Shown: positions 547 to 32,399 of the stretch, piece by piece
How positions within the stretch are numbered: position 1 is the first letter of the stretch
Layout of the letters: the number at the start of each line of letters is the position of its first letter
Position numbers and translations under genes: made by a program
The notes under the pieces: model-generated
What the model was told of the DNA's origin: nothing
What the model saw: only the letters and a program-made list of their open reading frames with translations
Database searches by the model: none
DNA from: a virus
Taxonomy: Duplodnaviria > Heunggongvirae > Uroviricota > Caudoviricetes
Virus record (IMG/VR): IMGVR_UViG_3300025011_000017
DNA length: 55,461 nt
Reading direction: 5' to 3' (one strand)

Positions 547-622
547 TGGTAGACAAGATTGGATTTGAACCAATGACCGACGAGGTATAAGCTCGCAACT
601 CTAACCGCTGAGTTACTTGTCC
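547..622 (-). tRNA. tRNA-Ile(TAT)
   Basis: Acceptor GGACAAG/CTTGTCT, anticodon arm GCGAG-CTTATAC-CTCGT, T-loop TTCAAAT, ACCA end. Confidence 0.92.
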
Positions 623-825: not shown

Positions 826-1623
826 TTAAATTATTACTGCTAATCTTTTCTTAGCATTTCTTTTAATTAATGATTCACTTATCTTATTTTTTGTTTCCTC
901 AGAACGTGGTTTCATAACTTGTTTACTCCTAGATTCTCTCATTTTTTGACGAGTTTCCTCAGAGGCTAATTTACCTATTTTAGATTTACTCATTTTATCT
1001 CTTGTTTCGTCTGAATATACTCTTTGTTTAGCAATGTCTATAAATTTCATTCTAGTTTCTTCTGAAATTACTCTATTTTGAAGTGCATTTGAAATCTTAT
1101 TCTTTGCTGAATCTGACATTATCTTACCTAAATTACCTATGCTGATTTTCTTTTTAGTTTCTTTAGAAAGATGTTTGCCCAACCATGCTTTAGCATTATT
1201 TTTAGATATCTTAAACTTGTGTTCTTCTGATAATATTTTACCTTTATTAGATTCGCTATTTTTCTTTTTAGATTCATCAGATACAATTTTATTTTTACAA
1301 CCACCAGAATCTAAATTATAACCAAATTCTCTCATAGTAGACTTATAATTTTTAATCCAGTGTTTTTCACGCTCATCAATTAATTCAGAATCACACTTTT
1401 CAAGAAGAGTATATTCAAAATTATCAGCACCGTATTTATTATATGAATTCTGTAAATGTTTATTTATATGTTTGTTTTTTCTTAGCTCATTTTTGTGCTG
1501 TTTCCATCTGGTCAAAACAAATCTACTCTGACCAATATAAACTTTATTATTTATTATATTTCTTATTTTGTAAATACCACATAAGTTATTTAACAATGTA
1601 AAATCACCTCTTCTATTTTTCAA
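826..1623 (-). CDS. GIY-YIG homing endonuclease with NUMOD3-type repeats
   Basis: GIYKIRNIINNKVYIGQS motif; repeated SEETKKKIS-type units; real start may be TTG at 1596. Confidence 0.9.
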   Translation of the reverse strand: MKNRRGDFTLLNNLCGIYKIRNIINNKVYIGQSRFVLTRWKQHKNELRKNKHINKHLQNSYNKYGADNFEYTLLEKCDSELIDEREKHWIKNYKSTMREFGYNLDSGGCKNKIVSDESKKKNSESNKGKILSEEHKFKISKNNAKAWLGKHLSKETKKKISIGNLGKIMSDSAKNKISNALQNRVISEETRMKFIDIAKQRVYSDETRDKMSKSKIGKLASEETRQKMRESRSKQVMKPRSEETKNKISESLIKRNAKKRLAVII

Positions 1624-3157: not shown

Positions 3158-3943
3158 TTAGTCTCCTTTATTTATATTTTTTATATTTGTAACTACGTTA
3201 ACATTTACATCTAAAAAATACACATTATTTTCTTGTTCTAAATATAAAATCATATCATATTCATATGGTTTTATTATTTCATACTTATCATTGAGAAATG
3301 TAAATCTATTTTCAGTATCAACTGGACACCAACAAAATTTATAATCTTTACTTTCATCAATATAAGGTAATTCTTTATCACTTTCTTCAAAACAACTTAT
3401 TGAAATATCATTACCTTTACTACAAATATAATTAATTTTTCCAAATTCAATTTTCCAATCATGTCTATATATAGTGTTTTCTAAGTAAATATTTCTATTA
3501 ATTCTTAAAGAAGGCAAAACTCTTAAGGCCGCAAATCTGTGTGTTTTAGAATTTTTATATTTTCTTAATCCTATTTTACCTTGTTTTTTTATATTATTGT
3601 TTTTAAATTTATTAAGTATTTCAATAGCACTATCATCACTACATTTTACACCATCAAAAAATACTTCTTTATCTTTGCGATATTCAATCTGTCTTTCATT
3701 TAATATTTGATATTCTTCTTTTCTTTCAGAAAACGCATCTCCATAAAATAAATAACTTGCCATTGTATCTAGTGCAATTTTTACCTTTTGAGCATAACCA
3801 CCTTGTTTGCGTTTTTTATCTTCCCAGTATTCATTAAAATAACCTTCGTATTCTGAAATAATATTATTTACTAAAATAATTCTTTCATCATAATTTAATT
3901 TAAGATCTAATTCAATAGATTTATCTGGTAAAATTATTCTCAA
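3158..3943 (-). CDS. Hypothetical protein
   Basis: 261-aa ORF with RBS AAGGTGA. Confidence 0.7.
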   Translation of the reverse strand: MRIILPDKSIELDLKLNYDERIILVNNIISEYEGYFNEYWEDKKRKQGGYAQKVKIALDTMASYLFYGDAFSERKEEYQILNERQIEYRKDKEVFFDGVKCSDDSAIEILNKFKNNNIKKQGKIGLRKYKNSKTHRFAALRVLPSLRINRNIYLENTIYRHDWKIEFGKINYICSKGNDISISCFEESDKELPYIDESKDYKFCWCPVDTENRFTFLNDKYEIIKPYEYDMILYLEQENNVYFLDVNVNVVTNIKNINKGD

Positions 3944-4021
3944 TTTTTTATCACCTTATCTTTTACATATGTTAACATACATTTGAAATGATTCTCACTA
4001 ACCTTTATCCGTGGAGCCATG

Positions 4022-4069
4022 CTATTTGTCGCATTTGTGACAATAATCTTTAAACCCATCTCTATTTCT
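4022..4069 (-). repeat. Diverged copy of the last 48 nt of gene 5458-5925
   Basis: 40/48 nt identical to 5458-5505; reads RNRDGFKDYCHKCDK* versus RNKDGFKNYCHKCDK*. Confidence 0.9.
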
Positions 4070-4215
4070 ACTCCTTTTAATTTAGATAATTAATTATCTA
4101 ATAAGATTTGTTCTTGATTCATCGTATCTATTTTCATAATATTGCTATTATTACTAATATTTAATGTAATACTCTGCAAGCGTAAATTCGGATAAAGTCT
4201 ACCCTACATATTTTA
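4050..4215 (-). ncRNA. Putative TnpB omegaRNA (scaffold plus guide)
   Basis: Directly 3' of tnpB; CCGAATTTACGCTTGCAGAG...CGATGAATCAAGAA resembles Firmicute tnpB right ends; boundaries approximate. Confidence 0.65.
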
Positions 4216-4216
4216 A

Positions 4217-5398
4217 TCATACTACAATATATTCTTTAGTGTTCTTTATATTTATGCTTGCATTTTTATCTCTATCTATTATTATTCCACACTCTTTACA
4301 AATATATTTTCTATCTGATATTTTTAAATTTTTATTTATATTACCACATTTAGAACATAGTTTACTTGAAGGGAACCACCTATTTACAATTCTTAATTCT
4401 ATATTGTTCCATAAGCACTTATAAGTTAATTGTCTTCTAAATTCATAAAAATACTGTTCTGATATTGCCTTAGATAAATGACTATTCTTAATCATTCCAG
4501 AAATATCTAAATCTTCAATGGCTATATACTCTGGTTTGGATTTTACTAGAGCATTAGTAATATTATGAATATAATTTATGCGAATATCAGTTAATATTTG
4601 ATAAATAATTCTTATTTTAGACTCTATTTTTATAATATTTTGTGTTTTAATAAATTTTTTACCATTTTTATTCATCTCATATTTCCTAGAAACTTGTCTT
4701 TGTAATCTTTTTAACTTTTTCTTTAATTTTCTTACTTTATTAGATTTATTAATGTTTTTAAAAGGATTATCAATATTACTAACAATTGCTAAATCTTTAA
4801 CCCCTAAATCCACACCAATTCCTTCTATATTAATATCTGAATAGTTATTAGAATCTGCAATTTCGCATAATACTGAAACATAATATCTTCCTGCTTTCAT
4901 TGATACAGTTCCGCTAACAACTTTTGCATTGATTGGTATATAACCTTTTTCCTTTAATTCTATAAAACCTAAAGTTGGAATTTTAATTCTATGTCTTTCA
5001 ATAGTCCAATCTGATTTATGATTTTTAGGGAAATAAATTTTAACATCTTGATTATTTTTCTTTTTAAACTTAGGAAATTTAGACCGACCTTTAAAAAAAT
5101 TCTTATATGCAATTTCTGCGTTAATAATAGCCTTCTTCCTAGCTTTAGAACCACACTCATTAATCCACTTAAATTCTTCAAGAACTTTAATTTCATTATT
5201 TATATACTTATCAAAATCATTAGCATTTATAAATGACAATTTTTTATCAATTTCACCATTCTTAAATTTTTCATAAAGTTCTTTATTTTTTGCCAAATAT
5301 GAATTATATAAGAAGCGACATATACCTATAGATTGATTAATTTTAATAATATGTTTTTTATTCAATCTAAGTTCAGTTTTGAATCCTTTAAATATTAT
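4217..5398 (-). CDS. tnpB: TnpB RNA-guided endonuclease (IS605/IS607-type), no transposase nearby
   Basis: KGFKTEL N-terminus, GVDLG, IEDL, CSKC/CKEC zinc finger, DRDKNASIN; frame extends to ATA at 5398 behind AAGGAG. Confidence 0.93.
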   Translation of the reverse strand: MIFKGFKTELRLNKKHIIKINQSIGICRFLYNSYLAKNKELYEKFKNGEIDKKLSFINANDFDKYINNEIKVLEEFKWINECGSKARKKAIINAEIAYKNFFKGRSKFPKFKKKNNQDVKIYFPKNHKSDWTIERHRIKIPTLGFIELKEKGYIPINAKVVSGTVSMKAGRYYVSVLCEIADSNNYSDINIEGIGVDLGVKDLAIVSNIDNPFKNINKSNKVRKLKKKLKRLQRQVSRKYEMNKNGKKFIKTQNIIKIESKIRIIYQILTDIRINYIHNITNALVKSKPEYIAIEDLDISGMIKNSHLSKAISEQYFYEFRRQLTYKCLWNNIELRIVNRWFPSSKLCSKCGNINKNLKISDRKYICKECGIIIDRDKNASINIKNTKEYIVV

Positions 5399-5457
5399 GT
5401 CGATCTCCTTTTTTTGTGTTTGTGTTTGTGTTTAAAACATTTTTAATATTAGTAATT

Positions 5458-5925
5458 TTATTTATCACATTTATGACAATAGTTTTTAAATCCATCTTTA
5501 TTTCTGCCATCCATTCCAAATTGACTTTCTTGTTTAAAGGTTTTGCATCTTGTGCATTGTTTCCAATTTTCATTTGTTGGTAATTTGTCCCAATAGATAT
5601 ATTCGTATAACCAATTTTGTTTTGATTGATTTATTATTTTTGCAACACATGTCTTTAATATTTTAAAGATTGCTACATCTGTAACTCCAATGGAGTCTGC
5701 TATATCTAATTCCGTATAACCTAATTGATATAATTCTAATATCTTCTTAGTTCTTTCATTAAATCCGCATCCACTTATTAATAAGTCTAGATCAGCATAT
5801 ACACATACTGCTCCTATATCAAATTCCGTTTTAAATTGATATCTATATTTTAATAATCCTTTAATAGCTTTTTCATCACATAAATTAACTATATCCCATT
5901 CTACTTCTTTATTATCATTTGACAA
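5458..5925 (-). CDS. Sigma-region-4-like HTH protein with C-terminal zinc finger
   Basis: GYTELDIADSIGVT HTH; CTRC...CHKC. Confidence 0.65.
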   Translation of the reverse strand: MSNDNKEVEWDIVNLCDEKAIKGLLKYRYQFKTEFDIGAVCVYADLDLLISGCGFNERTKKILELYQLGYTELDIADSIGVTDVAIFKILKTCVAKIINQSKQNWLYEYIYWDKLPTNENWKQCTRCKTFKQESQFGMDGRNKDGFKNYCHKCDK

Positions 5926-6016
5926 TAATTATTTCCTCCTCTCTTAATTAATTAAACTTATTATATATTCAATACTTACTATAATTCGGTATTAAGTAAA
6001 CCTTCGGTATAAATCA

Positions 6017-6045
6017 ATTATACCATATTACTTTATACTTGTCAA
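6017..6045 (-). promoter_or_regulatory. sigmaA promoter, TAAAGTAAT-spacer class
   Basis: TTGACA-17-TATAAT. Confidence 0.75.
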
Positions 6046-7215: not shown

Positions 7216-7244
7216 TTGACAAATATAAAGTAATGTTGTATAAT
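7216..7244 (+). promoter_or_regulatory. sigmaA promoter of recombinase, TAAAGTAATGT-spacer class
   Basis: TTGACA-17-TATAAT. Confidence 0.8.
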
Positions 7245-7312
7245 TGTTTTATTACTTATTATACTAATTTAATTGGTAATTGAATATAATAAATCTAAAG
7301 GAGTGTGTTAAT

Positions 7313-16927: not shown

Positions 16928-17149
16928 ATGGATATTATGAACGTATTAAGAAAAATGAATGAAGCAGTATTTCGGGTTGAAAGTAAACGTATATCTAAAC
17001 GTAACAAAAAAATCAAACATTCGATGCAATCTACAGAAAGCGAATTAGTAGAAACTATTACAAATTTAAAGAATAAAGGACATATTGAAATAGAGTTAAT
17101 AAAAATTAGAAAGTCATATAAGGAAAGGAAGATGGCAAATAAATTTTAG
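16928..17149 (+). CDS. Hypothetical basic protein
   Basis: RBS AAGGT. Confidence 0.6.
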   Translation: MDIMNVLRKMNEAVFRVESKRISKRNKKIKHSMQSTESELVETITNLKNKGHIEIELIKIRKSYKERKMANKF

Positions 17150-17224
17150 TTTGAACTTATGTCATTAAATTAAAATTTAATGACATATGTGTGAACTAAA
17201 AATTAAGAAAGTAGGTATTTTAAT

Positions 17225-18031
17225 ATGGCGAAAACTACTGCTAAATGCAAAGGACTCTGCAAACAAACTTATCCAGTAAAAATGATGAAAAAGATCGAAT
17301 CTCCTGGACACAATTATTTTTTTGTTTGTCCAGATTGTGCGACACGGGAGGAAAGCTATTACGACGAAAATGACAAATTGTCTCACAGAGAAAAAAAACA
17401 CGGCTTTACAGTATCGTATGAAGTCGAAACTGGAACAAGAAATGTTGCGTCAAATCTATTTTATGAATATGGATTTTTACCTACAGAGGACGGTTCAATA
17501 TGTGGGACTGAATGGAAAACGCCAATATATGTAAGTTTTAATGGTATCAAACAATTGCTTCGAAGCGTTGAAAAAGTTGGACTTTTTACAAATGACGAAG
17601 GCTGTCATACAAACATAGGCAACAAAAAATTGACTCCAGAAATGATAAAAGAAATACGTTATTCTCACATTGCGCTATTCAAACCTTTAAGCGATTATAT
17701 GTTAAAAAATCCTGAAGATGTTAAGCGCATATTCGGAAGGAATTTTAAATATTATGCACAAGCGTACCGAATAGATTCTAATCCATTACAACATGAGTTA
17801 TTTATAAATCTACAACATTCAACACATATAGAATTCAGAATTTGTAAATTTGTTACCGCAAATCAGCTCTTTAATGCTACAATGCTATGCCGCGAAATTG
17901 TAGGTTGTATAATAACAAACTATCTAGATTATCTTGTAGATTCTAGCGATGATGTATTGAGACGAAAATTAAGCGTAACTTCCAATAAGCTTATCAGTTT
18001 ATTTCAAAAGTATGCTAAAAAATCAGTTTAG
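17225..18031 (+). CDS. Putative amidoligase (COOH-NH2 ligase family)
   Basis: YEVE, EDGSI, EWKTP, GCHTN, IEFR motifs. Confidence 0.75.
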   Translation: MAKTTAKCKGLCKQTYPVKMMKKIESPGHNYFFVCPDCATREESYYDENDKLSHREKKHGFTVSYEVETGTRNVASNLFYEYGFLPTEDGSICGTEWKTPIYVSFNGIKQLLRSVEKVGLFTNDEGCHTNIGNKKLTPEMIKEIRYSHIALFKPLSDYMLKNPEDVKRIFGRNFKYYAQAYRIDSNPLQHELFINLQHSTHIEFRICKFVTANQLFNATMLCREIVGCIITNYLDYLVDSSDDVLRRKLSVTSNKLISLFQKYAKKSV

Positions 18032-18125
18032 TATAAAACAGATTACAAATATAAAGTAATAAATTATATTTGTAATCAATTTTATCCTAAAATGTAAAGG
18101 ATAAAAATTAAAATTTAAAGGGGGT

Positions 18126-18314
18126 ATGAAAATGAATATTAAAAGAATTGAAAAGTTTCCGTGTACTTTAGAACAAGTTATTGAGGTCTATATAAAATCT
18201 AAAATTAGTTGGTACAATTTTAGCGTCGAAGATAAAACTAAGGTTCGGAACTTATGCTGTGATCATTGTCAACGAAAATGTTGGCTAGGACATACTAAAA
18301 TTTATATTTATTAA
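18126..18314 (+). CDS. Hypothetical Cys-rich protein
   Basis: RBS AAGGGGG. Confidence 0.55.
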   Translation: MKMNIKRIEKFPCTLEQVIEVYIKSKISWYNFSVEDKTKVRNLCCDHCQRKCWLGHTKIYIY

Positions 18315-18917
18315 AGACTGAATTTTAAGGAGTTGCTTTAAAATGCAAAACAATAAGAAAATCATGGACTACTGCCACACCTTTTGTCCAAATTATGCGT
18401 GGATAAACGAGCAAAAAACTTGTATGAAAACAAAGTGTAGCCGTGAAAAACAAAAACTTGAATGGCAAAATAGAGATACAAACCGATTTGACAAAGGATA
18501 CTAAAAACTTAAAAAATGCTATGCTTTTATTAGGAGGGCATGTGCCCTCCTTTTCTTTTTGTTTAATATGTGAAATATATCACAACATCCTAGAATCGAT
18601 TCTAAGTCTTCATTTTAATCATATCTATATAACCTTTTAAAAAGTATTTTACTCTTAAAATAGATACCATTATGAGTCTTACAAAGGATTTTAATTAATC
18701 GTTCAAATTGACCAAAATAATTGCACGATATAAAAAATCTAATATTAAAATATCATTAAAAAATTAACGATGCCATTCTATTTAAAATTATCATATTTTA
18801 ATATCCGTTTTTATAAAATACCAAGCGAAAATTGTGAAATGTTTCACTAAATAAAAATTTTGATATTATAATATTATTATTTTGTGCAAAAAGAAAAGAG
18901 GATTTTTCAAATCCTCT

Positions 18918-19409
18918 TTAAAATAGTGGTGTATGTGGATCTGGATCTATTCTTGTCGAGCCATATGCAGTACGAATTCTATCCATGCTCCAGTTAGACT
19001 TTCCGCTCTTTATATAGTCTGATGGTTTCCAATACCAAGCTTTTTTCTTTCCTGCCCATGAAAAACCTGCTTGTTTAATAATTTCTTTGACCGCTTTTGT
19101 CTCGCCAGTTATCCAGACCCATGAACCGCAAATCTCAATAATTATGTTGGGAATAAATACCACTTTTGATATCACTTCGCGGAATCCGTCCATTATGTCA
19201 TGATGCTTATTCGCGTATTTGTCACTTTCTTCCCTTGGATGGTTTTTGACCCACTCAAAAGCATATTCGTATTCGATATTAATTTCCTTCATGTTTTCCA
19301 AATCTCCGTTGTGGTCTGGATGATGAATATAAACAAGTGCTTTATAAGCTTTTTTTAAGTCCCCAAGATTAGCATATTCTGCAAGATTGAACCATTTCAA
19401 TGTTTTCAT
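18918..19409 (-). CDS. DnaJ-domain protein
   Basis: LKKAYKAL...HHPD...MKEINIEY; C-terminal CGSWVWITG domain. Confidence 0.85.
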   Translation of the reverse strand: MKTLKWFNLAEYANLGDLKKAYKALVYIHHPDHNGDLENMKEINIEYEYAFEWVKNHPREESDKYANKHHDIMDGFREVISKVVFIPNIIIEICGSWVWITGETKAVKEIIKQAGFSWAGKKKAWYWKPSDYIKSGKSNWSMDRIRTAYGSTRIDPDPHTPLF

Positions 19410-19588
19410 AATTAATTCCCCCTTAATAATTTATCTATTATAGCTATTTTATCAGTTGACATATTATATGTCAATATACTTACTGACTTTATTTTAATGC
19501 ATATTATAATATTAAATTTATTCAATAAAATAAAATCAATATTATAATATCAATAATTTATTATAAAAAATAAGAGGAATAATTCCTC

Positions 19589-20026
19589 TTAAATAATTCC
19601 TTTCTCTTTTAAGCTAACGTGTTTTTCTTCTCCTATAATAACATGATCTAAAACCTGTATTCCCAAAATCTCCCCTGCATCAATCATACGTTTAGTTATT
19701 GTTATGTCTTCTTCGCTTGGCGTAGAATCTCCGCTAGGATGGTTATGGGCCAAAATAATTGCATTCGAATTAGCTAAAATTGCCGCTTTAAATACTTCGC
19801 GTGGGTGAACAATCGAAGAATTAAGTGAACCAACAGAGACAATATTTATAGCATTAACCTTATTTTTTGTATCTAAACACATCACACACAACATTTCTCT
19901 ATCTAAACCTTTCATAAAATCAACCATTATTTTATACGCATCGTATGGAGAGTTAACGGTATTTACTTCATAAAGTGCCGTATGATCTTTCACCATTTGT
20001 ATTTTAACGGTCTGAATTCTTTTCAT
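19589..20026 (-). CDS. radC: RadC-like JAB domain protein
   Basis: VHPREVFK, AHNHPSGDSTPSEED, LDHVIIG. Confidence 0.93.
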   Translation of the reverse strand: MKRIQTVKIQMVKDHTALYEVNTVNSPYDAYKIMVDFMKGLDREMLCVMCLDTKNKVNAINIVSVGSLNSSIVHPREVFKAAILANSNAIILAHNHPSGDSTPSEEDITITKRMIDAGEILGIQVLDHVIIGEEKHVSLKEKGII

Positions 20027-20430
20027 TATTAAGTCTCTCCTTTAAATTTAATTCATTATAACAATTTTATCATCAACATATTAATATGTCAATATAATTA
20101 TTTTATTTGATATTATAATACAATATGTATAAAAATTGCATATTATAATATCAAAATTATTTAAATAAAAGCAGGAGTTTCCTGCTTTAAGCTGAAATTT
20201 TTTCTATTTCTTGTTCTGCTATTTTTAACAACTTATCTCTTTTTATTTCTTCAAGAGGGGAAAGGTTAACTTTTATTAATAACTTAATAAGTTTATTATA
20301 ATCCGCTTCAAGCATTTTTATCAACTCCTTTTCATATAATAAATATATCATATTATTTTAGTCTTGTACATATAAACAAAAAACGATATTAAAATATTAA
20401 ATTTAATATAGAATAATGAGATAATAAATA

Positions 20431-21006
20431 TTATCCCATTATTCTATATCTTTCAAACGTAGAATTTGAATAGAATATACCATCCTTTTTGATCCAATCA
20501 TATCCTTCGAGCCACACTTCATTTTTGTCCATAATGGCAAACTTTGAATTTGTGCCATCAAAAATAGAGTTACCTTTAATTTTGTTTTTACTAATCTTGG
20601 AAAGATAGTCTTTAATGAATATTTGCGTATCGCTTAAATCATATCTTTTGTTAGTATTTTTACAGAAATTGATAATTCCATTATGAGCTATTCCAATTGT
20701 TGTTGAGAGTTCTAAAGCTTGTAGTTTTTTGATCGTTTTTGTCAAAGGAAAAGGATGAGTATTTTGTGGCGTTGATGCCCCTTGCGTTGCCCACCTGAAA
20801 TGTATAACTAAATCATTAGCATAAAAAATATATGATTTTATTTCTCGATAAAATTCGTTGAAGTTCATAAAACCTTTTTCGATTATTACCTTTTCGCCAT
20901 CGTTAAACATATAACCAACGCCATCGGGATTATTTTCAAAACATGTTTTTAAAATTGACTTGCTAGGTAAATTATGCCCCTTTGGCTTGTATACAATTAT
21001 ACACAT
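20431..21006 (-). CDS. Class II glutamine amidotransferase domain protein
   Basis: MC start, NPDGVG, HFRWATQG, HPF, AHNG, SDT. Confidence 0.88.
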   Translation of the reverse strand: MCIIVYKPKGHNLPSKSILKTCFENNPDGVGYMFNDGEKVIIEKGFMNFNEFYREIKSYIFYANDLVIHFRWATQGASTPQNTHPFPLTKTIKKLQALELSTTIGIAHNGIINFCKNTNKRYDLSDTQIFIKDYLSKISKNKIKGNSIFDGTNSKFAIMDKNEVWLEGYDWIKKDGIFYSNSTFERYRIMG

Positions 21007-21203
21007 TATATTCACCCCTTCTTAAGTTACTACATTTTATCATTATTGCATTCTAATGTCAATATAATTGCCCGTTATTAATTTTTAATATTAAAATACA
21101 ATAGAAATATTAATTTATATTACAATATTTAAAATTTTATTATTATAATATAATAAAATTTGATATTAAAATACTAAAATATTTACATAAAAAAAAGAGA
21201 ACT

Positions 21204-21830
21204 TTAGTCCTCTTCTTCCTCATTTTTTACATATATATCAAATGTTATATAGAATTGGCTTGTTTCAGCAATGTTAAAAATTATTTGAGCAAATTGATCC
21301 TTGAACTTATTATATAGTTTTTGTGGGTTGTCATTCATACCAGTATGCAATCCGTTCTGGTATGAATCATCAAGTTTTGCGAATCCTTTTTCAATCAGTT
21401 CGTCGCGAGTAAATAATACATTGGCTGTCAAAGGATTATTTGTAATATGCTCCAGGTATCCTTCAGGATTATCATGCATACATACACTACATTCCAAAAA
21501 ACCATCGCCAATCCAAAAATCTGGCGTCCAGCCATAGCAATCCGCTGACGTTCTAACCACTGAGCCACAACTACTACATTGAGAGTATTCGTCAGAATAG
21601 ACTACAATTATAATATCGTCCATTCTCATCATTTCTGTTAATTCGTCTTCGATACTTTTCAAAAATTCTTCTACTGCATCAGCTTGTTTCGAGTTTTCAC
21701 AGATTACATGAGTCAATTCGTGTTTATCTTCTCCAATGTTAACCCCACCATCGAAAAGACCATTATCTCGACAGAAACTATGCACCATTTCAACGACATC
21801 TAATTTGTCTAATTGAGCTATTTGATCCAT
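21204..21830 (-). CDS. Hypothetical acidic protein with zinc ribbon
   Basis: RBS GGAGG; CSSC...CSVC. Confidence 0.7.
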   Translation of the reverse strand: MDQIAQLDKLDVVEMVHSFCRDNGLFDGGVNIGEDKHELTHVICENSKQADAVEEFLKSIEDELTEMMRMDDIIIVVYSDEYSQCSSCGSVVRTSADCYGWTPDFWIGDGFLECSVCMHDNPEGYLEHITNNPLTANVLFTRDELIEKGFAKLDDSYQNGLHTGMNDNPQKLYNKFKDQFAQIIFNIAETSQFYITFDIYVKNEEEED

Positions 21831-22256
21831 TATTAATTCCTCCTTAAAATTCTTTATATCTTATTATATAGGAAATTCAATGTAATGTCAATATAATTAA
21901 TTTTAAATTATTTTTAATATTATAATATGAAATCTAAATAAAGAGAGTTAATCTCTTTATTTACTTCCTATAGTTATTATTTGAGTATAAAACATTAAAG
22001 CAACACAAATAAAAGCAATAAAATTGGATAAAATAAATTCTTGTTTCTTATTTAGCATTATTTTATTCTTGTGCAAAATAATTCCCCCTTTAGGATATAT
22101 ATTATCAACAAATAATAAGCATGTCAATATAATAAAATAGTGTATTATAATATATAGAATCTCATTTTTATTTCGTATTATAATATCATTAAAATAATGT
22201 AAAAAGAAAAAGGAAGACGTTTCTTCCTTTATATCCATGCATAATCTGCTTTATTA

Positions 22257-22310
22257 TGGTTTGCCGAAATGGGTTATACTTATATAGGAAAATTTAGTTT
22301 AGGCCACAAT
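22257..22310 (+). pseudogene. Inverted fragment paralogous to C-terminus of 23593-23844
   Basis: WFAEMGYTYIGKFSLGHN versus WFEEIGYTYIGKFSLGHN. Confidence 0.8.
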
Positions 22311-22335
22311 CGTTTGGCTCAACGCAAGATATTTA

Positions 22336-22563
22336 TCATTTTTTACTTATGCGATTATCTTCATAATAAATTAATTGTCTTACAATAACTATTACTACAT
22401 AAACAACTACAACTAATAATGTTAATATCCATAATGGACTTAATACCCACAACCATGTCCAAGTAATTATATTAGATAATTTTAAACCAATAAATAGTAT
22501 AGTTAATAAGCCAACAATTCCAGATCCTCCAGATGAATTGTTTTTATTAGACAATATATTCAC
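22336..22563 (-). CDS. Small membrane protein
   Basis: LFIGLKL...WTWLWVLSPLW pattern. Confidence 0.75.
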   Translation of the reverse strand: MNILSNKNNSSGGSGIVGLLTILFIGLKLSNIITWTWLWVLSPLWILTLLVVVVYVVIVIVRQLIYYEDNRISKK

Positions 22564-22954
22564 CTCCTTAAAACAATATTATCACTTTATATACATACTG
22601 TCAACATTATCTTATATTAATATTGAAATATTAGCTTAATTTGTTAAAAATAAAAGGGAAGTCTAAACTTCCCCTGTCCTGTATTTACATCCATTTTCTT
22701 CCGTCCAGTTAAAACAATACCAGCATGGACGAAAATCATTTAGAGTACAACCTTCTTTTTCAATTTGAATACTTTGCTTCATAAGCTATAACCTCTTTCA
22801 TTAATTTATTCTTATTATATTACTTATATCATTAAGTGTCAATATAAATAATTTTCTATATTATAATATAATAGAACTTCAATTTTATATTTTAATAACT
22901 GTATTGACATCGAAGCAATTCAGTGATAAAATAAATAAAAGGAGTTGAATTATA

Positions 22955-23185
22955 TTGGATAAAGAAAAACGTGTTAATGGTTGGAAGTGTGAAGAAAAAC
23001 ATGAGTTATGGTTATCTGAATACGATAAATATGTTTTGATGGATGAATTACAACTAAGGATATATAGTATTGAAGCATCTAGGAATAAAGTTGGTATTAG
23101 TCCTGACGATAAAAAAGCAGAGTCAAATAAACATATTGACGCAATTAATAGAATACTTATTCAACTAAGGGAGGAGTTAAAATAA
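22955..23185 (+). CDS. Hypothetical protein
   Basis: Promoter plus RBS AAGGAG. Confidence 0.65.
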   Translation: MDKEKRVNGWKCEEKHELWLSEYDKYVLMDELQLRIYSIEASRNKVGISPDDKKAESNKHIDAINRILIQLREELK

Positions 23186-23407
23186 ATGTTTGATAAGCGT
23201 TTTTATGATTTAGTTCGAGAAAACGAAGAGATTAATAAAAAAAGTGACCTTATAACCAAAGAATTTAGGGAAAGATATTTGAATCCCCTTATCGAAAAAG
23301 GTGACATAGAAGGGATAAAGGAATTTATTGTACAGGTAGGAAATGAATATTCTCGCTGGTGTGCAAGAGATGCATTATCAGATTTATTAGAAAAAGAAGG
23401 TAAATAA
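23186..23407 (+). CDS. Hypothetical protein
   Basis: RBS GGAGG. Confidence 0.65.
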   Translation: MFDKRFYDLVRENEEINKKSDLITKEFRERYLNPLIEKGDIEGIKEFIVQVGNEYSRWCARDALSDLLEKEGK

Positions 23408-23500
23408 TTGCCTTCTTTTTATTTTAAAACTTCATATTATAATATAATAAAACTCCGATTTTATTATTGTATTTTAATATAGAAAATTTTTTAAATATTA

Positions 23501-23534
23501 TAATATAATATAATATAATATAATATAATATAAT
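23501..23534. repeat. (TAATA)6 microsatellite
   Basis: Direct reading. Confidence 0.9.
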
Positions 23535-23592
23535 TTACATATTATAATATTAATAATATTCTACAAAAAGAAAAGAAGGGTTATTACCTTCT

Positions 23593-23844
23593 TTAACCAG
23601 TTTTAAATCTGTTGTGTCCCAAACTAAATTTTCCTATATATGTATATCCTATTTCCTCAAACCACTTGATCATCACATTAGCAGGATAACCGCTAAAATC
23701 GCCAGTAATAGGTATTTTTTTAGAACTGATTCTATAGCATGGCTTTCCGTTTTTGATGCCAGATATTAAGCTTGCATTATCCTTAGTAGATTCATTCTTG
23801 AAGGATCGAATGTTTAATTCGTGGAAAACATCGTCATTAGCCAT
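23593..23844 (-). CDS. Hypothetical protein
   Basis: RBS GGGAGG. Confidence 0.7.
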   Translation of the reverse strand: MANDDVFHELNIRSFKNESTKDNASLISGIKNGKPCYRISSKKIPITGDFSGYPANVMIKWFEEIGYTYIGKFSLGHNRFKTG

Positions 23845-24061
23845 AACATATAACCTCCCTAAATTTTGAAATACTTCTTATAAATATGCTAAAATTTAAA
23901 ACAAACTTATTCGCTCATTTGGCTCAATATAAGAAGTATTTTTCATTAACTTATTCTAACATTAAACGTAAAAGCTGTCAACATTATTTTATATTAGTAT
24001 TTTAATATAATTAATTATTGTATTTTAATATATAAAATTTATTATAAATAAGAAGGAGGTT

Positions 24062-24397
24062 TTAAACCTCCTCTAATAAATAAGAATTTTCTTCGGTATC
24101 ATTAAAATCAAGTTCCAAACTATCTTCTAATTCTTGCTTAACTTCTTTATCTAAAAAATCGCCATAGACTAAAAATCCTAATAATGTATTTCCCATGTCT
24201 TTTAATCCCCTATACAAATTACAGCCGCTTGAAAGGTCATTGCCTTTAAAAATCTGCGTTCCATTTAACTTAACTATATAATTAATAACCATACGATTTT
24301 CAGAATTAAGTCCTAATTCTTTTAATCCAATCTCTACTTTTCCGCATTTAAACCATGTCATATTATCATTCTCCATTATTTTCTTCCTCCTCTTCAC
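24062..24397 (-). CDS. Hypothetical protein
   Basis: ORF coupled to upstream gene; real start likely MENDNM. Confidence 0.65.
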   Translation of the reverse strand: MKRRKKIMENDNMTWFKCGKVEIGLKELGLNSENRMVINYIVKLNGTQIFKGNDLSSGCNLYRGLKDMGNTLLGFLVYGDFLDKEVKQELEDSLELDFNDTEENSYLLEEV

Positions 24398-24767
24398 ATT
24401 TAAACCAACCTATGCAAGCACCATCGTCTTCTGTGTTACCAAAATAATAGCCTTCAGGAGCAATACTATTGAAGAAATTATATATTCCTTCGTCCCATAT
24501 GTTGTTTGCTTCTTCCATTTCTTTTTCTGGTATTTTGATCAGCGAATAGTATTGATTGCGGAATAGAGGTGACAGCTTATCCTCAGATTCATCAGTATTT
24601 ACAAATACTCCTTCAATTTCATCTTTAAGAGCGGTTTTAAGTTCATAAGCAACAATAAGATCATAAGCTTTTGGAAGCAAATGAACAAGATTTAAAGTCC
24701 CATCTGATAATATATATCCTTCCTTAGAAATAATATCATTTTGAAGATTTTTTACTGTCATTTTCAA
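24366..24767 (-). CDS. Hypothetical acidic protein
   Basis: RBS AAGGGGG; APEGYYFG...DGACIGWF. Confidence 0.7.
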   Translation of the reverse strand: MKMTVKNLQNDIISKEGYILSDGTLNLVHLLPKAYDLIVAYELKTALKDEIEGVFVNTDESEDKLSPLFRNQYYSLIKIPEKEMEEANNIWDEGIYNFFNSIAPEGYYFGNTEDDGACIGWFKCEEEEENNGE

Positions 24768-24880
24768 TTTCCCCCTTTTTTATAAATATAACATGGTATT
24801 TAACAAGTGTCAATATAATTAAATTAAAAATATATTTCATATTATAATATATTAAATTATTCGTAATTAAAAAAAGGTTT

Positions 24881-25291
24881 TCACCTTTTTTTAAAACTAT
24901 AATCACGATAATGATCACGTTCTCTTTTTAAATATTCAATTTGTTTTTCGAGTGCTTCAGTCTTATTTCTATATTTATAAGATTCTCCAGAAACGCAAAA
25001 ATAATTAAGTCCATTTAAAAATGGTATATATTTATCTTTTGTTTCCAATTCAATAGTACAATCTAACATTTTATGAGCTTTATTTTTTTTGATACTTACA
25101 TAACTTATGTCATTCGCACCTATAACCAAATACCATTTTCTGGATAATTTATGGTTTATATATTTTTTTAAAAATCTTATATAATGTAGCTTAAAACTAA
25201 ACCATTTCGAACTTAGTTTTGCTAGACCAGTTTTTGGTTTTCCTAAATTTTCTAAATCAACGAGCATTTTTAAAACCTTTTTATCAAACAT
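24881..25291 (-). CDS. Hypothetical basic protein
   Basis: RBS GGGAGG. Confidence 0.65.
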   Translation of the reverse strand: MFDKKVLKMLVDLENLGKPKTGLAKLSSKWFSFKLHYIRFLKKYINHKLSRKWYLVIGANDISYVSIKKNKAHKMLDCTIELETKDKYIPFLNGLNYFCVSGESYKYRNKTEALEKQIEYLKRERDHYRDYSFKKR

Positions 25292-25589
25292 AATAAATTT
25301 CCTCCCAAATATTTTGTTTCATTAAGTATATAAAATAATGAGTTAATAGTCAATAAATTATATTTTTGGTATTTTAATATACAAATAAATTAGTTTGACA
25401 CAAGAATACAGTAATGTTATAATTACATATAATCAAATAAAGGAGTGGAGGAATGTTGAAACAATTTATTCTTGATCGTGCTAAACTCGAAACGCTACTT
25501 AGTATTATGAAAGAGCGTAATGTTAGTTTATTGGTTAATACCATTTATGAAGATGATTTACTTATTGTCGAGGATGAAAATCAAATTTT

Positions 25590-25943
25590 TTGTACAAGCA
25601 TTGCCATAAATTGAAAGGGGACTGCATTGTGAAATATAAAGTTGACATAGTTATTACCAATAGAAATACCTTTGAGCAGAAATTTATCGAAAAGGAATTC
25701 ACTGATCGAGAACAAGCAGAAGACTATAAGCAGGAAATTCTTGATGCTATGGATTTTAATGAATGTTCACATTGGTATAAAGTCATACCTATTAAAACAT
25801 GTTCGTGTGGTGAAGAAGTTGAATTATCAAGTTTTACAAATACATGCGATTGCGGAATTAATTATAATTTTAGTGGTGATATGTTAGCGGATCGAGAACA
25901 ATGGGGAAGTGAGACAGGAGAAAGGTGGCAAGATTGTTATTAG
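25590..25943 (+). CDS. Hypothetical protein with zinc ribbon
   Basis: CSCG...CDCG; likely GTG start 25629. Confidence 0.65.
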   Translation: MYKHCHKLKGDCIVKYKVDIVITNRNTFEQKFIEKEFTDREQAEDYKQEILDAMDFNECSHWYKVIPIKTCSCGEEVELSSFTNTCDCGINYNFSGDMLADREQWGSETGERWQDCY

Positions 25944-26129
25944 TGGATTAAAATCCACTAATTTTTTTATTTTTATTTATATTATATTAAAATATGTAAA
26001 ATATCATATTATAATACAATAGATATTTATATTTAAATATTGATTTAAAAGTATATTGACATTGCTATTGATATGTGTTAATATTAGAGCATCGAACACG
26101 AATTTTATTGCTTAAAGGAGGTTTAAAAC

Positions 26130-26330
26130 ATGCAGAAATTCTTTCTTATTTGTTTTGAAAATACTACGAAAGCAGTAGATATTATCCAAGCAAATTCTGA
26201 AAATGAAGCTATACAAAAATTTGCAAGTAATAGAAACGGAAATCTACATGAAGAAAATGGTATATTGTATTATAAACTTCCAAAATCAAATTATCGTTTA
26301 TATGCACTAAATAATAATCATGTAAGATAG
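26130..26330 (+). CDS. Hypothetical protein
   Basis: Promoter, RBS GGAGG. Confidence 0.65.
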   Translation: MQKFFLICFENTTKAVDIIQANSENEAIQKFASNRNGNLHEENGILYYKLPKSNYRLYALNNNHVR

Positions 26331-26362
26331 AATCCAGTTTCTATAATGAAAGGAGAATAATA

Positions 26363-26557
26363 ATGCAAAAAATCAATGAATATTCGAAGTTAATGCACTT
26401 TCAAACTTTTTTGTTTGATGATACGGATGAAGGATTTAATGAAATGGTAGAACATGAAGTAAAAATGAAATCTGAAGGATATGATATTGTAAATACAAAG
26501 TTGCAGGACGGTAAGCGTAGAGTTCATTATGTTAAAAGCAATATATTAGAGGGATAA
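26363..26557 (+). CDS. Hypothetical protein bounded by two ATARAA-N6-TTYTAT sites
   Basis: RBS AAAGGAG. Confidence 0.65.
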   Translation: MQKINEYSKLMHFQTFLFDDTDEGFNEMVEHEVKMKSEGYDIVNTKLQDGKRRVHYVKSNILEG

Positions 26558-26921
26558 AATACAATTTTTATAGCAGGTTTTATCATCCTGCTTATTTTTT
26601 TAAGTAAATTCATGATATTATAATATAAAGAAGAATTCACCTTTATATTATAATATCATGAGAATATATGTATTGACATATTTAGTTTAATATGATATAT
26701 TTATATAAAGAAGATTGAAAGAGAGGGCAAGGATAAAATATGATTGGAAGTACTAAAATTGGTGAATATGCACGAACGATTGAAATGTTAATGAAAATGA
26801 CAGATAAATCTAAAAAGGATGTTGCTTTGATATTATATTTTTTATACGATTCTCAATATAAGAGTTTAGATTTGAAGACAATGGCTGACTTAATCACAAA
26901 CAAACAATTGTAAATCATAAA

Positions 26922-27281
26922 ATGAAAGAGGTTATGAAAATGGAAAAACTAAAAGTTACTAAAAGGGAAATGAAAAATAGGTATAATCGAATTGTTAAAA
27001 TTGGTTATTGTGACGCTCAATATTTACTTACTTATGAAAACCCCATAGCTTATAGCACAAGATCAGAAGGGTGGGCGTGTGATTATTACGACATTGACGG
27101 AATATTGATTTCCACTGGTTACACTCCTTTAGATGATAAAAATATGAAGCATGATTTTAATCTTCTTCAAGAGTATGAGCAGAAGGCCAGAGTCATTGTA
27201 TTAGGCCAAGAAGTGCATGAAGAACAAAGGGAAAAAGTAACACAATTATTAAAGCAATTTATCAATGAAATTACGCTATAA
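26922..27281 (+). CDS. Hypothetical protein
   Basis: IGYCDAQYLL...YST...GWACDYY. Confidence 0.7.
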   Translation: MKEVMKMEKLKVTKREMKNRYNRIVKIGYCDAQYLLTYENPIAYSTRSEGWACDYYDIDGILISTGYTPLDDKNMKHDFNLLQEYEQKARVIVLGQEVHEEQREKVTQLLKQFINEITL

Positions 27282-27513
27282 AGGTAATAGGCAGGAGAAA
27301 AATCCTGCCCATTACTTTTAGGAGGATTTAAAAGATGGATTATGACAGCAAAAGAGATAAGCAAGCTGAATTGCTATTCACTGGAAAATGCGAAATTAAG
27401 AAAACTGAATTGGATGATTTTAAAAACTATCTAATTAAAACAAAAATAGCATTTTCATTTACCCAAGACAATCAAAAGTGCATTTTTAAATTAATTTAAG
27501 GAGGGAAATATTT

Positions 27514-27705
27514 ATGGATTTTAAAGACGCTATTCTTGATGGCAAACAAAAAATATTGGCATTTCAAGATGATGATGATGTATGTATTTGCAAAGAGTGT
27601 AGACAAGAAGTTGATGCTACATTAATCTGCATGAAGTGTTACAAAGAAATATGTCTTTCTTGCGCTCATATTAGTGGAAAAATACTTTGTTCAGACTGTA
27701 AATAG
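27514..27705 (+). CDS. Cys-rich zinc-binding protein
   Basis: Four CxxC; RBS GGAGG. Confidence 0.65.
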   Translation: MDFKDAILDGKQKILAFQDDDDVCICKECRQEVDATLICMKCYKEICLSCAHISGKILCSDCK

Positions 27706-27745
27706 AAAAGAAGGGACATTAAAACCCTTTAAAAGGAGTGGTAAA

Positions 27746-27985
27746 ATGAATATTGACAATATTGATAAATTGAAGTCTGAGGAAATGAAAAAATTACACG
27801 CTGAAAAAGAAGCATATGTAGATCATTACGAAGAAGAACAGAACAATTTTATTAATGCAATGACTGAAAAATATAATGTTAAAACTCTAGATGATTTTAG
27901 AAAACTTGCTAGTCTTAGAATATTTCCTGATTCTGTTAGTTTGGTATTCGCTTTTAAAAGATTTATGGATATAAAAGACAAATAA
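27746..27985 (+). CDS. Hypothetical protein
   Basis: RBS AAGGAG. Confidence 0.6.
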   Translation: MNIDNIDKLKSEEMKKLHAEKEAYVDHYEEEQNNFINAMTEKYNVKTLDDFRKLASLRIFPDSVSLVFAFKRFMDIKDK

Positions 27986-28337
27986 AATCATGTTTCTATT
28001 ACCTAAATAAAGGAGGGGAAGATCATATCTACTAAAAATGATTTAATTGAAAAATTATTTAGTCCATATATGTTATTTGGAAGAATGAAAAAAGGGACTG
28101 AAAAAGCTGAAATTATTAAAAAGGACTTGAAAAAACTTTCTATCGATACTTTATTAGAAATGATACTTTATGGAGAAAGACAACATTAGATTATAAATCC
28201 AATTTCTATAACGAGGCTAATATCCTCGTTATATTTTTAAAATAAAAATTTAATATTAAAATATATAAAAATAATTATATTGACAATTTTGTATATAAAG
28301 TTTATAATTTAAAATAAAAAAGAAAGGACAAGTAAAT

Positions 28338-28529
28338 ATGTGGAGATTAAAAAATATTGCAATGATATATTTAGGTAGTTTCTTTGCTTCACTTGGAATA
28401 TTTGGTACTATTAAATCTTTTAGTATGTTAAATATCTTAATTATTACCATTATTAATGGAACATTTTTTACTGCTCTTGGCTTTGTTGGTGAAAAATTAT
28501 TAACTTTTAAAGGAGAATGCTTAAAATGA
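28338..28529 (+). CDS. Small membrane protein
   Basis: Two hydrophobic helices. Confidence 0.55.
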   Translation: MWRLKNIAMIYLGSFFASLGIFGTIKSFSMLNILIITIINGTFFTALGFVGEKLLTFKGECLK

Positions 28530-28795
28530 GTACAAGTTATGGAGTTCACGGAATTAAACCTGCTGGTGATAAATGGCATAATATGAAGGCTGTTTATGAA
28601 GCTTGTATTTTTGCAAACGTAGAGGTTCCTAAAACTGTATGGGATTTCTTTGGCAATGAAGAACCTGATGATTTAGGAGTTAAAGTTAAACTCGAACCTA
28701 TCATTGAGCATGGCGATGGAGAATGTAATTATATAATCGATTTAACTAAAATTGACAAAAATATTCAACTCATTGTATTTTCTGCATCATGGTAA
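28517..28795 (+). CDS. Hypothetical protein
   Basis: RBS AAGGAG. Confidence 0.65.
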   Translation: MLKMSTSYGVHGIKPAGDKWHNMKAVYEACIFANVEVPKTVWDFFGNEEPDDLGVKVKLEPIIEHGDGECNYIIDLTKIDKNIQLIVFSASW

Positions 28796-29143
28796 AAAGA
28801 GGGAAAGCCCTCTTTTACTTTTTAATTTCATATTATAATATCATTTATTTATCTATGTCAATATAAATAAATATATGATATTAAAATATTAAAATAATAC
28901 TATATTGACATTGAAAATTCTATATGATATAGTAAGATAAATCAAAAAGAAAGGATTTGAAAGTGTTTACCCTCTTTTAGAAGGAGGTGCATTATGTTTA
29001 TTATAATTTTTATTTTTTTAATTGTTTGGATAATTTTATGTGGTTATAAAACATAAATATTTTCTGATAAATGTATTGACAAATATGCAGTAATGTATTA
29101 TACTTAGGATATTAGGAAAACAGATTTAAAGGAGTGGATTTTA

Positions 29144-30160
29144 ATGTTTACTCATACCCAAATGAACGTAACCGCGAAATGGTTTGCTAGAAATGAAGGA
29201 AAATTAAACTTCAACCATGTTATCCAACGCAATAAGGTCTGGACTCATTCCCAAAAAAGCAAGCTCATTCATTCTGCAATGGTTGGTTATCCTGTTCCTG
29301 ATTTTTACGTTGTCGAGCTTAACGATGACATTTTATGGTTTCTTGATGGCAAGCAACGTGGAACGTCATTCATCGAATTCATAAAAGGTGGCTTCGAACT
29401 TTCTAAAGATACTCCGCCAGTGGAAATTGCCGATGGAGAATGGCTTGAGGTAGCAGGAAAAAACTTTCTAGAATTGCCCGAAAATTTGAGGGATGAAATT
29501 AAGGACTGTGGCCTAAAAATCCATAAGTACAAAAATATGAAGGAACATGAAATATCCGAACTATTCCTTCGTCTTAATGGTGGCACACCGCTAACAAAAA
29601 TTCAGATCACAAGAGTAATTGCAGGAACAACTTTTATGGAATTTGTTCGTGCTGTAGCGGAGCAAAAATTCTTCCGCGAATTAATTGTGATATCAGATAA
29701 CGCCAGAAACAAATCCGTAGACGAAGATTTAATTCTTCAAACTATGTCTCTGGTATGTTCTGGAGATAAGTTCACAAGCTTTTCTGGCGATGATGTCCGT
29801 AAATTCGCTGAACAAAATAAAGAAGGCGTTTCCGAAGAAATGCAAGAAGTGATTTTTCATACAACCCTATATCTTGAAGAAGCTATTTCTGAAAAGCATA
29901 AAAAGCTTATCAAAGTAAATGTGCCAATCTTGTTCAATGTGGCGATTACAGCCCAAAAAGACAATGTTCCTGCCAAAGCTTTCGGAGAATGGTTGTTTAA
30001 TTTCCTTGATAATTACGCTCCTGGGGGAGAATATGGTAGTCACTGTTCGACTAAAACCGCAACAAAAGAGAACGTTTTAGGTCGCTTAAAAGCAATGACG
30101 AAGGACTATAATAACCTAATCGGAAAGTTCGTTGCAAAAACTCAGCAAGCCGCAAAATAA
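29144..30160 (+). CDS. DUF262 (ParB/Srx-like) domain protein
   Basis: QRNKVW, LIHS...GYPVP, LDGKQR, LFLRLNGG. Confidence 0.85.
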   Translation: MFTHTQMNVTAKWFARNEGKLNFNHVIQRNKVWTHSQKSKLIHSAMVGYPVPDFYVVELNDDILWFLDGKQRGTSFIEFIKGGFELSKDTPPVEIADGEWLEVAGKNFLELPENLRDEIKDCGLKIHKYKNMKEHEISELFLRLNGGTPLTKIQITRVIAGTTFMEFVRAVAEQKFFRELIVISDNARNKSVDEDLILQTMSLVCSGDKFTSFSGDDVRKFAEQNKEGVSEEMQEVIFHTTLYLEEAISEKHKKLIKVNVPILFNVAITAQKDNVPAKAFGEWLFNFLDNYAPGGEYGSHCSTKTATKENVLGRLKAMTKDYNNLIGKFVAKTQQAAK

Positions 30161-30876
30161 GGACTGTTAAATCAGTCCTTTCTTTTTGTATTTAAATGTG
30201 AAATAAATCACGTAATTATATTTTAATATCAATAATAATACTAATTATTATATTTAAATATAAACAATTAACCTTATTGACATTAAATCAAAAGTGGTAT
30301 ATAATGAGGTAATATTGAAAAGGAGGCTGATTTTCAAAGTGGCTCGTTGTAAAATATGTGGTAATGAGTTTAATTTGAAAAATGATAGTCCAGTTATAGT
30401 TTGTAAAGAACCGTTTTGTGTTTTTGAAATGACTGAAAGGATTATGAATAAAGAGCGAAGTAAAAAGCTAAAGTTTATAAGGAGATAAAATGAAAAAAGT
30501 AATTGTAGATTTTTTGCCAGATTGCGATATTTGCAAAGATAATGGCGAAAAATCTAAAGCAAATTATGATGCTAGGACAATTTCTGGAGTAGGGGGTGTT
30601 TAATAATTGTTTGAAGTAATTAAATTAAATGAGGACGAAATTCTTAAAGCGTGTATACTATATCTTTATGAAGAAAGGGCTATTTGTGCTGATAATGCAA
30701 AAATAGTTGTGAATAGAGATTTAATTGTTTCTGTAGAAATTGTAAGAAGCGAATAAGAAGAGAAATCTTCTTATTTTTTTATGCTAAACTATTATATTAA
30801 AATACTACATAAAAACTATATTGACATTGATCATATATTTTGATAAAATAAGTTAAATGAAAAAGGAGTTGAAGGA

Positions 30877-31356
30877 ATGAAGAATTTAGTGTTTGTGTAT
30901 GGTTCTTTGCTTGAAGGGTTGCACAATCATAGTGTATTAGGTAAGCATAAAAAATTGGTTGGAACTGGAAATATCAAAGGATTTAACATGTGGTCAATCA
31001 ACGATGCGTTTCCTGCTATAATGCCAGTAAGAAAGGGAATTATAGTTGGGGAAGTGTATGAGGTTGATGATGAAACTATGGTTGATCTTGATCGTTTAGA
31101 AGGTAATGGATTTATGTATCAACGCGAATTAGTATTTGTAAGAATGAAAGATAGTGAATTAATTAGAGCTTGGATTTATGTTTATATACGTCAAGATATC
31201 TCTAAAGGAATATGTCCATTTATTCCGAATGGAGACTGGAGAACGTATTTAGATATTATACACTCTAATCCTCCAATAATTGATATCAAAGAAAATGGCA
31301 AGGAGATAATTATTATTGATGGTGCAAAGCGTAGTCAGTCTCTAATGAAAGGATGA
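30877..31356 (+). CDS. Gamma-glutamylcyclotransferase (AIG2-like)
   Basis: FVYGSL, GEVY, LDRLEG, AWIY, GDW. Confidence 0.9.
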   Translation: MKNLVFVYGSLLEGLHNHSVLGKHKKLVGTGNIKGFNMWSINDAFPAIMPVRKGIIVGEVYEVDDETMVDLDRLEGNGFMYQRELVFVRMKDSELIRAWIYVYIRQDISKGICPFIPNGDWRTYLDIIHSNPPIIDIKENGKEIIIIDGAKRSQSLMKG

Positions 31357-31967
31357 TTATAAATGGCAAATACTATTTGGTTTGAAAAAATACTTAATAA
31401 ATTAAGTGATGATGAATTAGAGATTTTTATTAATACTCTTGAAAATATTTCTAATGAAAGGATTATTAAAATTATACAGAAAGTTAGAGGATAATAATAA
31501 AATAGTTCTATAGCAGGAGTTATCCTGCTTTTTGTTTCACAAATAAACTATCGTATTATAATATGTAAGATTAATTATATTGACTTTTTAGATTTAGATG
31601 ATATAATGTTAATAACGAATAAATTGATAACTTACTGAACGCTAAGTAAGGGAAAGAGGGATTTTTTTATGAAATATTTTATTAAAATGGATATCAATTC
31701 TCAACTTAAAGAATATCATGATTGTTTGAATTATTGTAAAGGTGCAGAAGATGTTATAAATGGAAAAGCTACTCCTGAAGAGGTAGCTAAAAATAATCCG
31801 TTTATCCAAGATATGAAACGTATTTTAGAAGAAAAAGGTGTAATTTAGACGTGTGGTTTATCTGCGCTTTTATACTTTGAATTATATTATAATATCTAAA
31901 AATAATTATATTGACACGTAGTGATCTTGGTGATATAATTAAAATAATAATGAAAGGAGTTTTAATT

Positions 31968-32366: not shown

Positions 32367-32399
32367 GAATTTAGCCTTTATATTTAGAAGGGAGATAGA

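Follow-up and report, generated by a model that had tools for sequence, protein, structure and literature searches.

Our analysis suggests that a tnpB gene sitting in the last codons of a phage regulator gene probably is, or recently was, an RNA-guided homing element that carries a replacement (rescue) end for the gene it occupies. The insertion point, a displaced gene end, a substitute gene end, empty alleles in related phages and an intact nuclease and scaffold can all be read from the DNA, and this layout is the one expected of a natural RNA-guided homing element. The window, i.e. the whole stretch of 55,461 nucleotides that was analysed, represents a temperate Firmicutes-type phage region; it is AT-rich (28% GC) and contains an integrase, PhoH and tRNAs. 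In groundwater metagenomes, contigs of up to 183 kb carry identical copies of the cassette locus, and among the related genomes and contigs compared the cassette was seen in one phage lineage only. The features of the locus are listed in Table 1.

Table 1. Features of the tnpB cassette and its surroundings, with positions in the window.
Feature	Position	Strand	Remarks
Sigma-70-type promoter	6017..6045	-	perfect 12/12, 17-nt spacer; upstream of target gene; kept in empty sister phage
Target gene, 155 aa	5458..5925	-	sigma region-4-like helix-turn-helix and C-terminal four-Cys zinc finger
TAM position, resident allele GGCAG	5504..5508	-	empty sister allele is GGGAG
Replacement (resident) gene end	5458..5503	-	15 codons including stop; carries two of the four zinc-finger Cys
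Spacer with ribosome-binding site AGGAG (5409-5405)	5396..5457	-	no recognisable homology to the usual intergenic region; slight likeness to an IS607 left end
IS607-type tnpB, ~392 aa	4217..5395	-	ATA start, aligned with the ATG of relatives
Guide-RNA scaffold / IS607 right end	4068..4210	-	5' hairpin 4204-4190, RAGATH-18 core 4180-4111, shortened 3' hairpin 4100-4083, terminal AGGAGTAG 4075-4068
Predicted 20-nt guide	4048..4067	-	mismatches at 13, 20 to empty sister allele and at 6, 13, 20 to resident allele
Displaced original gene end	4022..4067	-	no longer translated; 44/46 to empty allele L018
Original 3' intergenic flank	3944..4021	-	homologous to the flank after the gene in empty alleles; shuffle p < 0.0005 vs L016
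Downstream gene, 261 aa	3158..3943	-	no family; conserved; immediately after target gene in empty phages

The end of the target gene occurs twice in the window. The segment 4069-4022 (minus strand) is a repeat of 5505-5458, offset by 1436, and the last 48 nt differ at eight positions (4062, 4055, 4048, 4046, 4037, 4031, 4028 and 4022), five of them synonymous including the stop, exactly as the initial annotation had listed. A chance repeat was rejected, since the 47-nt core matches at 40/47 positions and the best ungapped match elsewhere in the window reaches 27/47. The self-match of the guide is 26/30 here; none of the 37 related elements with enough upstream DNA for this comparison exceeds 21/30, and the same layout was found in none of these 37 close relatives.

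Element-free alleles indicate which of the two copies is the original one. The sister-phage sequences L016, L017 and L018 have the same gene order without tnpB, and their gene body is 94% identical to that of the window. The gene end in L018 agrees with the downstream copy over 44/46 nt (96%) and then runs into the flank at 4021-3944, whereas the resident end matches the empty allele at 40/46 positions (five of the six changes synonymous) and is followed by sequence unrelated to the empty flank. Since end and flank of L016-L018 both match the downstream copy, the latter represents the displaced original, and the resident end is its substitute. It had been proposed from the window alone that the element sits in the 3' end of the gene with the original end pushed downstream, and that element-free relatives would end in a 4022-4072-like version followed by the 3944-4021 flank; such relatives exist and support the proposal. 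A distant ortholog (L008, 57% amino acid identity) is also empty. Cluster members, together with a homolog of the downstream gene, led to the empty alleles. No matches came from a metagenome scan with the target gene or from scans of viral contigs in which the target gene, the downstream gene and a degenerate pattern of the gene end were the queries.

Occupied and empty phages were found in the same samples, i.e. ERZ27254726 (L015 and L016) and 3300024999 (L007 and L018), which speaks for homing. Their coexistence would also suit a competition weapon, in which co-infecting sister phages lose yield or have their markers excluded because TnpB cuts their regulator gene, the cassette itself being copied rarely. 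The flanks beyond the target gene are only 70-88% identical between the window and the sister phage and may limit repair, and a precedent exists in the intronless homing and marker exclusion of phage homing endonucleases (PMC13565253; PMC11620839). However, the homology arms that abut the cut site are much closer (the gene body, and 96% for the displaced end) and would favour copying, and such a weapon is compatible with homing rather than exclusive of it. We consider this explanation improbable as a substitute for homing.

The target gene encodes a probable phage transcription regulator. Its product matches phrog_5767 (sigma factor) with an E-value of 4.6e-19 and is 29% identical to a phiCD211 protein, while a fold search gave nothing at E <= 0.001 and weak sigma-4 fold matches only. 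The zinc-finger cysteines C124, C127, C150 and C153 are invariant among 28 homologs, and as C150 and C153 lie within the last 15 codons, a plain insertion at this site would break the finger. The gene is the first one behind the promoter at 6017..6045, from which one transcript likely covers the target gene, tnpB and the guide RNA. This promoter belongs to an inverted repeat of 37 nt with 89% complementarity (6009-6045 and 7216-7252), which represents two divergent near-consensus promoters flanking a 183-aa replication-initiator-like gene; similar promoter copies lie at 627-689 and 768-830.

The nuclease is an IS607-type TnpB, as indicated by its closest solved structure, the ISFba1 TnpB (8IAZ, E 8e-103, compared with 3e-43 for ISDra2), and by its RAGATH-18 RNA. 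Its nearest relatives are IS607 elements, 73-80% identical, many of which have a serine-recombinase tnpA. The likeness to ISDra2 suggested by the initial annotation thus pointed to the wrong family, and an IS200/IS605 enzyme of the ISDra2 type, with an AT-rich TAM (TTGAT) and a reRNA overlapping the coding sequence, was rejected because the junction is of the GGGAG type, RAGATH-18 lies outside the gene and ISFba1 is the closest structure. The claim of an intact RuvC D-E-D triad was confirmed: D194, E292 and D374 are present (codons at 4810, 4516 and 4270; residues numbered from the Lys codon at 5389), and so are the four zinc-finger cysteines of TnpB. The claimed absence of tnpA also held, as tblastn found no serine-recombinase tnpA in the 55-kb window (the contig has ~183 kb in total); loss of tnpA is common in this IS607 clade. 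The conserved IS607 right end is present, whereas nhmmer with a left-end profile did not find an IS607 left end at the site, where the likeness is weak and anchored only. The tnpB gene starts with ATA 9 nt after AGGAG, and non-ATG starts (ATA or ATT) were also seen in the relatives L108 and L134. A short ACACAA-type tandem repeat lies at 5414-5433 (minus strand) in the spacer before the ribosome-binding site.

The register of the guide could be set by comparison with related elements. RAGATH-18 scores 55.2 bits at 4180-4111 (gathering threshold 44.9), downstream of tnpB and outside its coding sequence. The scaffold aligns end to end with 12 relatives, its helices are kept through compensatory changes, and its 3' hairpin is shorter than theirs. 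In 42 related elements a conserved ...GCAG-type ending is followed by unrelated flank. Their last nucleotides are ...AAAGGAGCAG or ...TAGTAGCAG; the first of these types aligns with ...AAAGGAGTAG at 4077-4068 of the window, hence the guide starts at 4067 and not at 4072 as first proposed. The four mismatches originally counted between the 20 guide nucleotides and the resident copy (positions 1, 3, 11 and 18) become three in the corrected register (6, 13 and 20). The two mismatches to the empty allele, at 13 and 20, are both a guide G opposite a target T, and the alignment therefore predicts that the sampled empty allele is a suitable target, if not a perfect one. Another target in the window was rejected, as only a 4-mismatch site without a TAM was found.

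The insertion motif is G-rich. Among 18 left junctions of the clade 16 read AGGAG and two TGGAG, and these agree with the measured TAM of the ISFba1 family (PMC11061315). An ISFba1-type TAM is AGGAG or GAGGG, and the empty site here reads GGGAG, which resembles the clade motif and is the presumed TAM of the window's TnpB. The TGGAT first named as TAM, by analogy to TTGAT, does not agree with this motif; the pentamer adjacent to the resident end is GGCAG. Elements of the clade (L101-L156) insert directly behind AGGAG, in many cases a ribosome-binding site, and their left ends vary widely in the first 4-7 nt.

The resident copy is predicted to be doubly protected from its own nuclease. The change at 5506 (TAM -3) is synonymous and gives the rarest Gly codon (9/156). 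In ISFba1 any single TAM change abolishes cutting (PMC11061315) and single guide mismatches at positions 1-13 impair it, and the -3 guanine is the most strictly read TAM base of CboTnpB (PMC10690162). Given this strictness, the resident copy is probably protected by the synonymous -3 change together with the seed mismatch at position 6, and not by the feature named initially. One might instead suppose that the RNP only binds, at the resident copy or the region of its transcript, and in this way tunes the operon as TldR repressors do; 110 nt before tnpB, this operon holds a near match to the guide. We regard this as very improbable, and a TldR repressor was rejected, because the RuvC triad is not inactivated, whereas TldRs lack it (PMC13622181); moreover the resident TAM is broken at -3 and the seed is mismatched.

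One TAM-contacting residue of the nuclease is changed. The ISFba1 contacts K80, K83, N61, N62, Y117 and N121 are kept in the window's TnpB, and N122 is replaced by His (codon 5020); residues were matched by HMMER alignment, with the offset checked on Y117, F103 and R130-H131-R132. N122 of ISFba1 bonds the A at TAM -5, where the target of the window's element has G. His at this position occurs in one of 120 homologs, the window's own protein, and Asn-Asn in 99. Among close relatives with a readable junction, a base other than A at -5 was found in two of three elements with Gly at the reader and in none of 20 with Asn (p 0.012), and the two Gly-reader elements lie on different branches. The His-for-Asn reader thus appears to fit a nuclease tuned to one site, a correlation drawn from small numbers, and general protein-DNA chemistry suggests that His could read G at -5. 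Gly at the reader occurs in L114, L117/L118, L123 and L143, two of which sit after TGGAG; L051 (Asp-Ala) and L152 (Asp-Arg) sit after GGGAG. All of these are natural TAM variants.

The divergence around the site is uneven. Of 11 genes compared between the window and the sister phage, the target gene shows the lowest pS (0.22, others 0.36-0.65), which suggests recent DNA exchange near the site; phage mosaicism alone can also give such a value. Between the substitute end and the empty allele 6/16 degenerate codons differ, against 16/126 in the gene body (Fisher p 0.02) and 1/14 in the displaced end, while a single bin of 23 codons in the gene body, with 7/22, equals the substitute end in divergence. 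The displaced end differs from the empty allele by one synonymous and one non-synonymous change, i.e. at the level of coding DNA although it is untranslated. The four distal changes of the substitute end move towards preferred codons and hence need no selection. This pattern fits an old cassette with a right flank refreshed by recombination, and a recent insertion repaired with foreign DNA would look the same.

The substitute end might be derived from the left end of the transposon itself. It lies where a left end would be expected, and against 18 IS607 left ends it scores 30.6, compared with 17.6 for the empty version and 11.4 for the guide version (p 0.0005 under an AT-matched null; p 0.037 given the protein). 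However, this signal is modest, nhmmer gives no IS607 left-end match for the substitute end, and the outgroup L008 scores 22.3 against the left ends and shares three codon states with the substitute end. The substitute end may therefore be a remodelled IS607 left end, a captured older foreign allele or an old local duplicate.

We tentatively propose that the cassette is a domesticated IS607 TnpB acting as a cleave-and-rescue homing element between phages, with the TAM reader retuned from Asn to His, one fixed target in a regulator gene, and an immune substitute end possibly from the transposon's own left end; this full scenario is possible, and less secure than homing as such. In homing as such, the more probable reading, an IS607 element would have inserted at GGGAG^ in the last 15 codons of the zinc-finger regulator gene, removing two zinc ligands; tnpA would have disappeared from the lineage, and a substitute gene end would have been acquired on the left of the element. 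With the displaced original end as the source of its guide, TnpB would cut the alleles of related phages that lack the element when both phages share a cell, 16-22 nt beyond the TAM as ISFba1 does. The break would be repaired by homologous recombination, in which the gene body forms the left arm and the displaced end together with the downstream gene (3158..3943) the right arm; this would copy the cassette and leave a working gene, while the substitute end would escape cutting through the synonymous TAM -3 change and the mismatch at guide position 6.

Homing has to be weighed against a repaired relic. In the latter case an IS607 insertion broke the gene, one recombination or rearrangement restored the end and removed tnpA, and TnpB and its RNA are decaying passengers that cut no circulating allele. 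The mean dN/dS of TnpB to its relatives is ~0.10, within their own range (0.05-0.13), and its frame is open although the synonymous distance exceeds 1 to every relative. These values argue against a relic, as do the covariation in the scaffold, the unique change at the TAM -5 reader that matches the unusual -5 base of the target, and the non-coding displaced end that has diverged no more than coding DNA. On the other side, TnpB alone departs from otherwise invariant columns at five positions, more private changes than in any other member of the set (0-4), and among its substitutions Ser replaces R301, which touches RNA in ISFba1. Its branch is 0.20, compared with mostly 0.05-0.12 in relatives. 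These changes, the ATA start, the two guide mismatches (13 and 20) to the only empty allele sampled among close phages, and the restriction to a single lineage favour a relic and count against homing. The longer branch and the tnpA loss common in the clade further favour a relic, and the diverged gene-body bin and the selection-free distal codons further count against homing. The guide match in itself needs no selection, because the guide of any IS607 element is the sequence right of its insertion. We judge a relic rather unlikely and retain homing, which is further favoured by the divergence of the substitute end, the kept TAM contacts and the low pS of the target gene.

A second phage genotype (L007/L014) is identical to the window from 11925 to ~2100, cassette included, and diverges abruptly near 2061. 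A free-standing GIY-YIG/NUMOD3 endonuclease gene lies at 826-1623 (minus strand), directly upstream of tRNA-Ile (547-622) and tRNA-His (468-541); it is absent from the sister phage (L016/L017), and L007/L014 has a 461-aa DUF4379 gene at the same place, so that the slot has three states. A GIY-YIG gene next to tRNAs resembles T4 SegB, which is also beside tRNA genes. The tRNA at 547-622 (minus strand) has the anticodon TAT, unusual in bacteria, which reads ATA; tnpB also starts with ATA, possibly by coincidence. Many intergenic palindromes (40-95 nt) and dispersed repeats were observed in 17000-33000, e.g. 26610-26661, and 22778-22872 with 31881-31972, and are probably repeated early promoters or operator sites.

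If our reading is true, the cassette would represent a third way for a TnpB element to live in a needed gene, besides harmless insertion sites and self-splicing: the gene is rebuilt in DNA and the displaced piece is turned into the guide. In nature it would correspond to engineered drives equipped with a recoded rescue, and the His variant would add a naturally TAM-shifted member to a family of compact genome-editing nucleases. The case is unusually easy to test, as both alleles, the exact junction and a candidate residue for TAM specificity are in hand.

Homing by TnpB of IS605 and IS607 elements, restorative and non-restorative, is established: the guide is the sequence right of the element, the empty site is cut and repaired by recombination, and TnpA is dispensable for spread among plasmid copies (PMC10690162; PMC11870625; review PMC13565253). 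These elements simply interrupt their site; the locus studied here instead has a rebuilt, intact near-copy of its target next to the nuclease, and self and non-self therefore differ by substitutions in TAM and seed. The closest enzyme is the ISFba1-type IS607 TnpB (Ren et al. 2024, PMC11061315; PDB 8IAZ), which shares the downstream RAGATH-18, the AGGAG-type junctions seen in the clade and most TAM contacts. Unlike ISFba1, the window's element has no tnpA or clear left end, with a substitute host-gene end there instead, and it has an ATA start, a His at the TAM -5 reader and the target motif GGGAG. IStrons (CboIStron, PMC10690162) likewise place an IS607-derived TnpB in a gene without destroying it; they restore the gene by RNA self-splicing, whereas this locus restores it in DNA with a spare end. 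An IStron was rejected here, since no group I intron match was found in 3900-5600 at E <= 1 and only ~110 nt separate the junction from tnpB.

The same layout is known from the gene hybrids of mobile ORFs in fungal mitochondria (Allomyces macrogynus atp6; Glomus atp6, atp9, cox2 and nad3), where a gene core is followed by a foreign C-terminal piece, an endonuclease gene and a displaced native piece closer to the alleles of relatives (PMC3630166). The window likewise has a substitute C-terminal piece upstream of tnpB and a displaced native piece downstream of it that element-free relatives match. The cassette is like these elements but no member of them, because its nuclease is a TnpB: the gene hybrids use protein-guided LAGLIDADG or GIY-YIG enzymes, whereas TnpB is guided by an RNA whose guide part is templated by the displaced end itself. 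Free-standing phage homing endonucleases (T4 Seg/Mob, intronless homing; PMC13565253) also cut a conserved neighbour gene of co-infecting relatives with their own allele protected by substitutions; unlike the window's cassette, they are protein-guided and without a duplicated gene end or transposon origin. A literature search, with most subscription journals outside its range, found no published description of a TnpB cassette with a substitute gene end. The enzyme and the RNA themselves belong to a described family.
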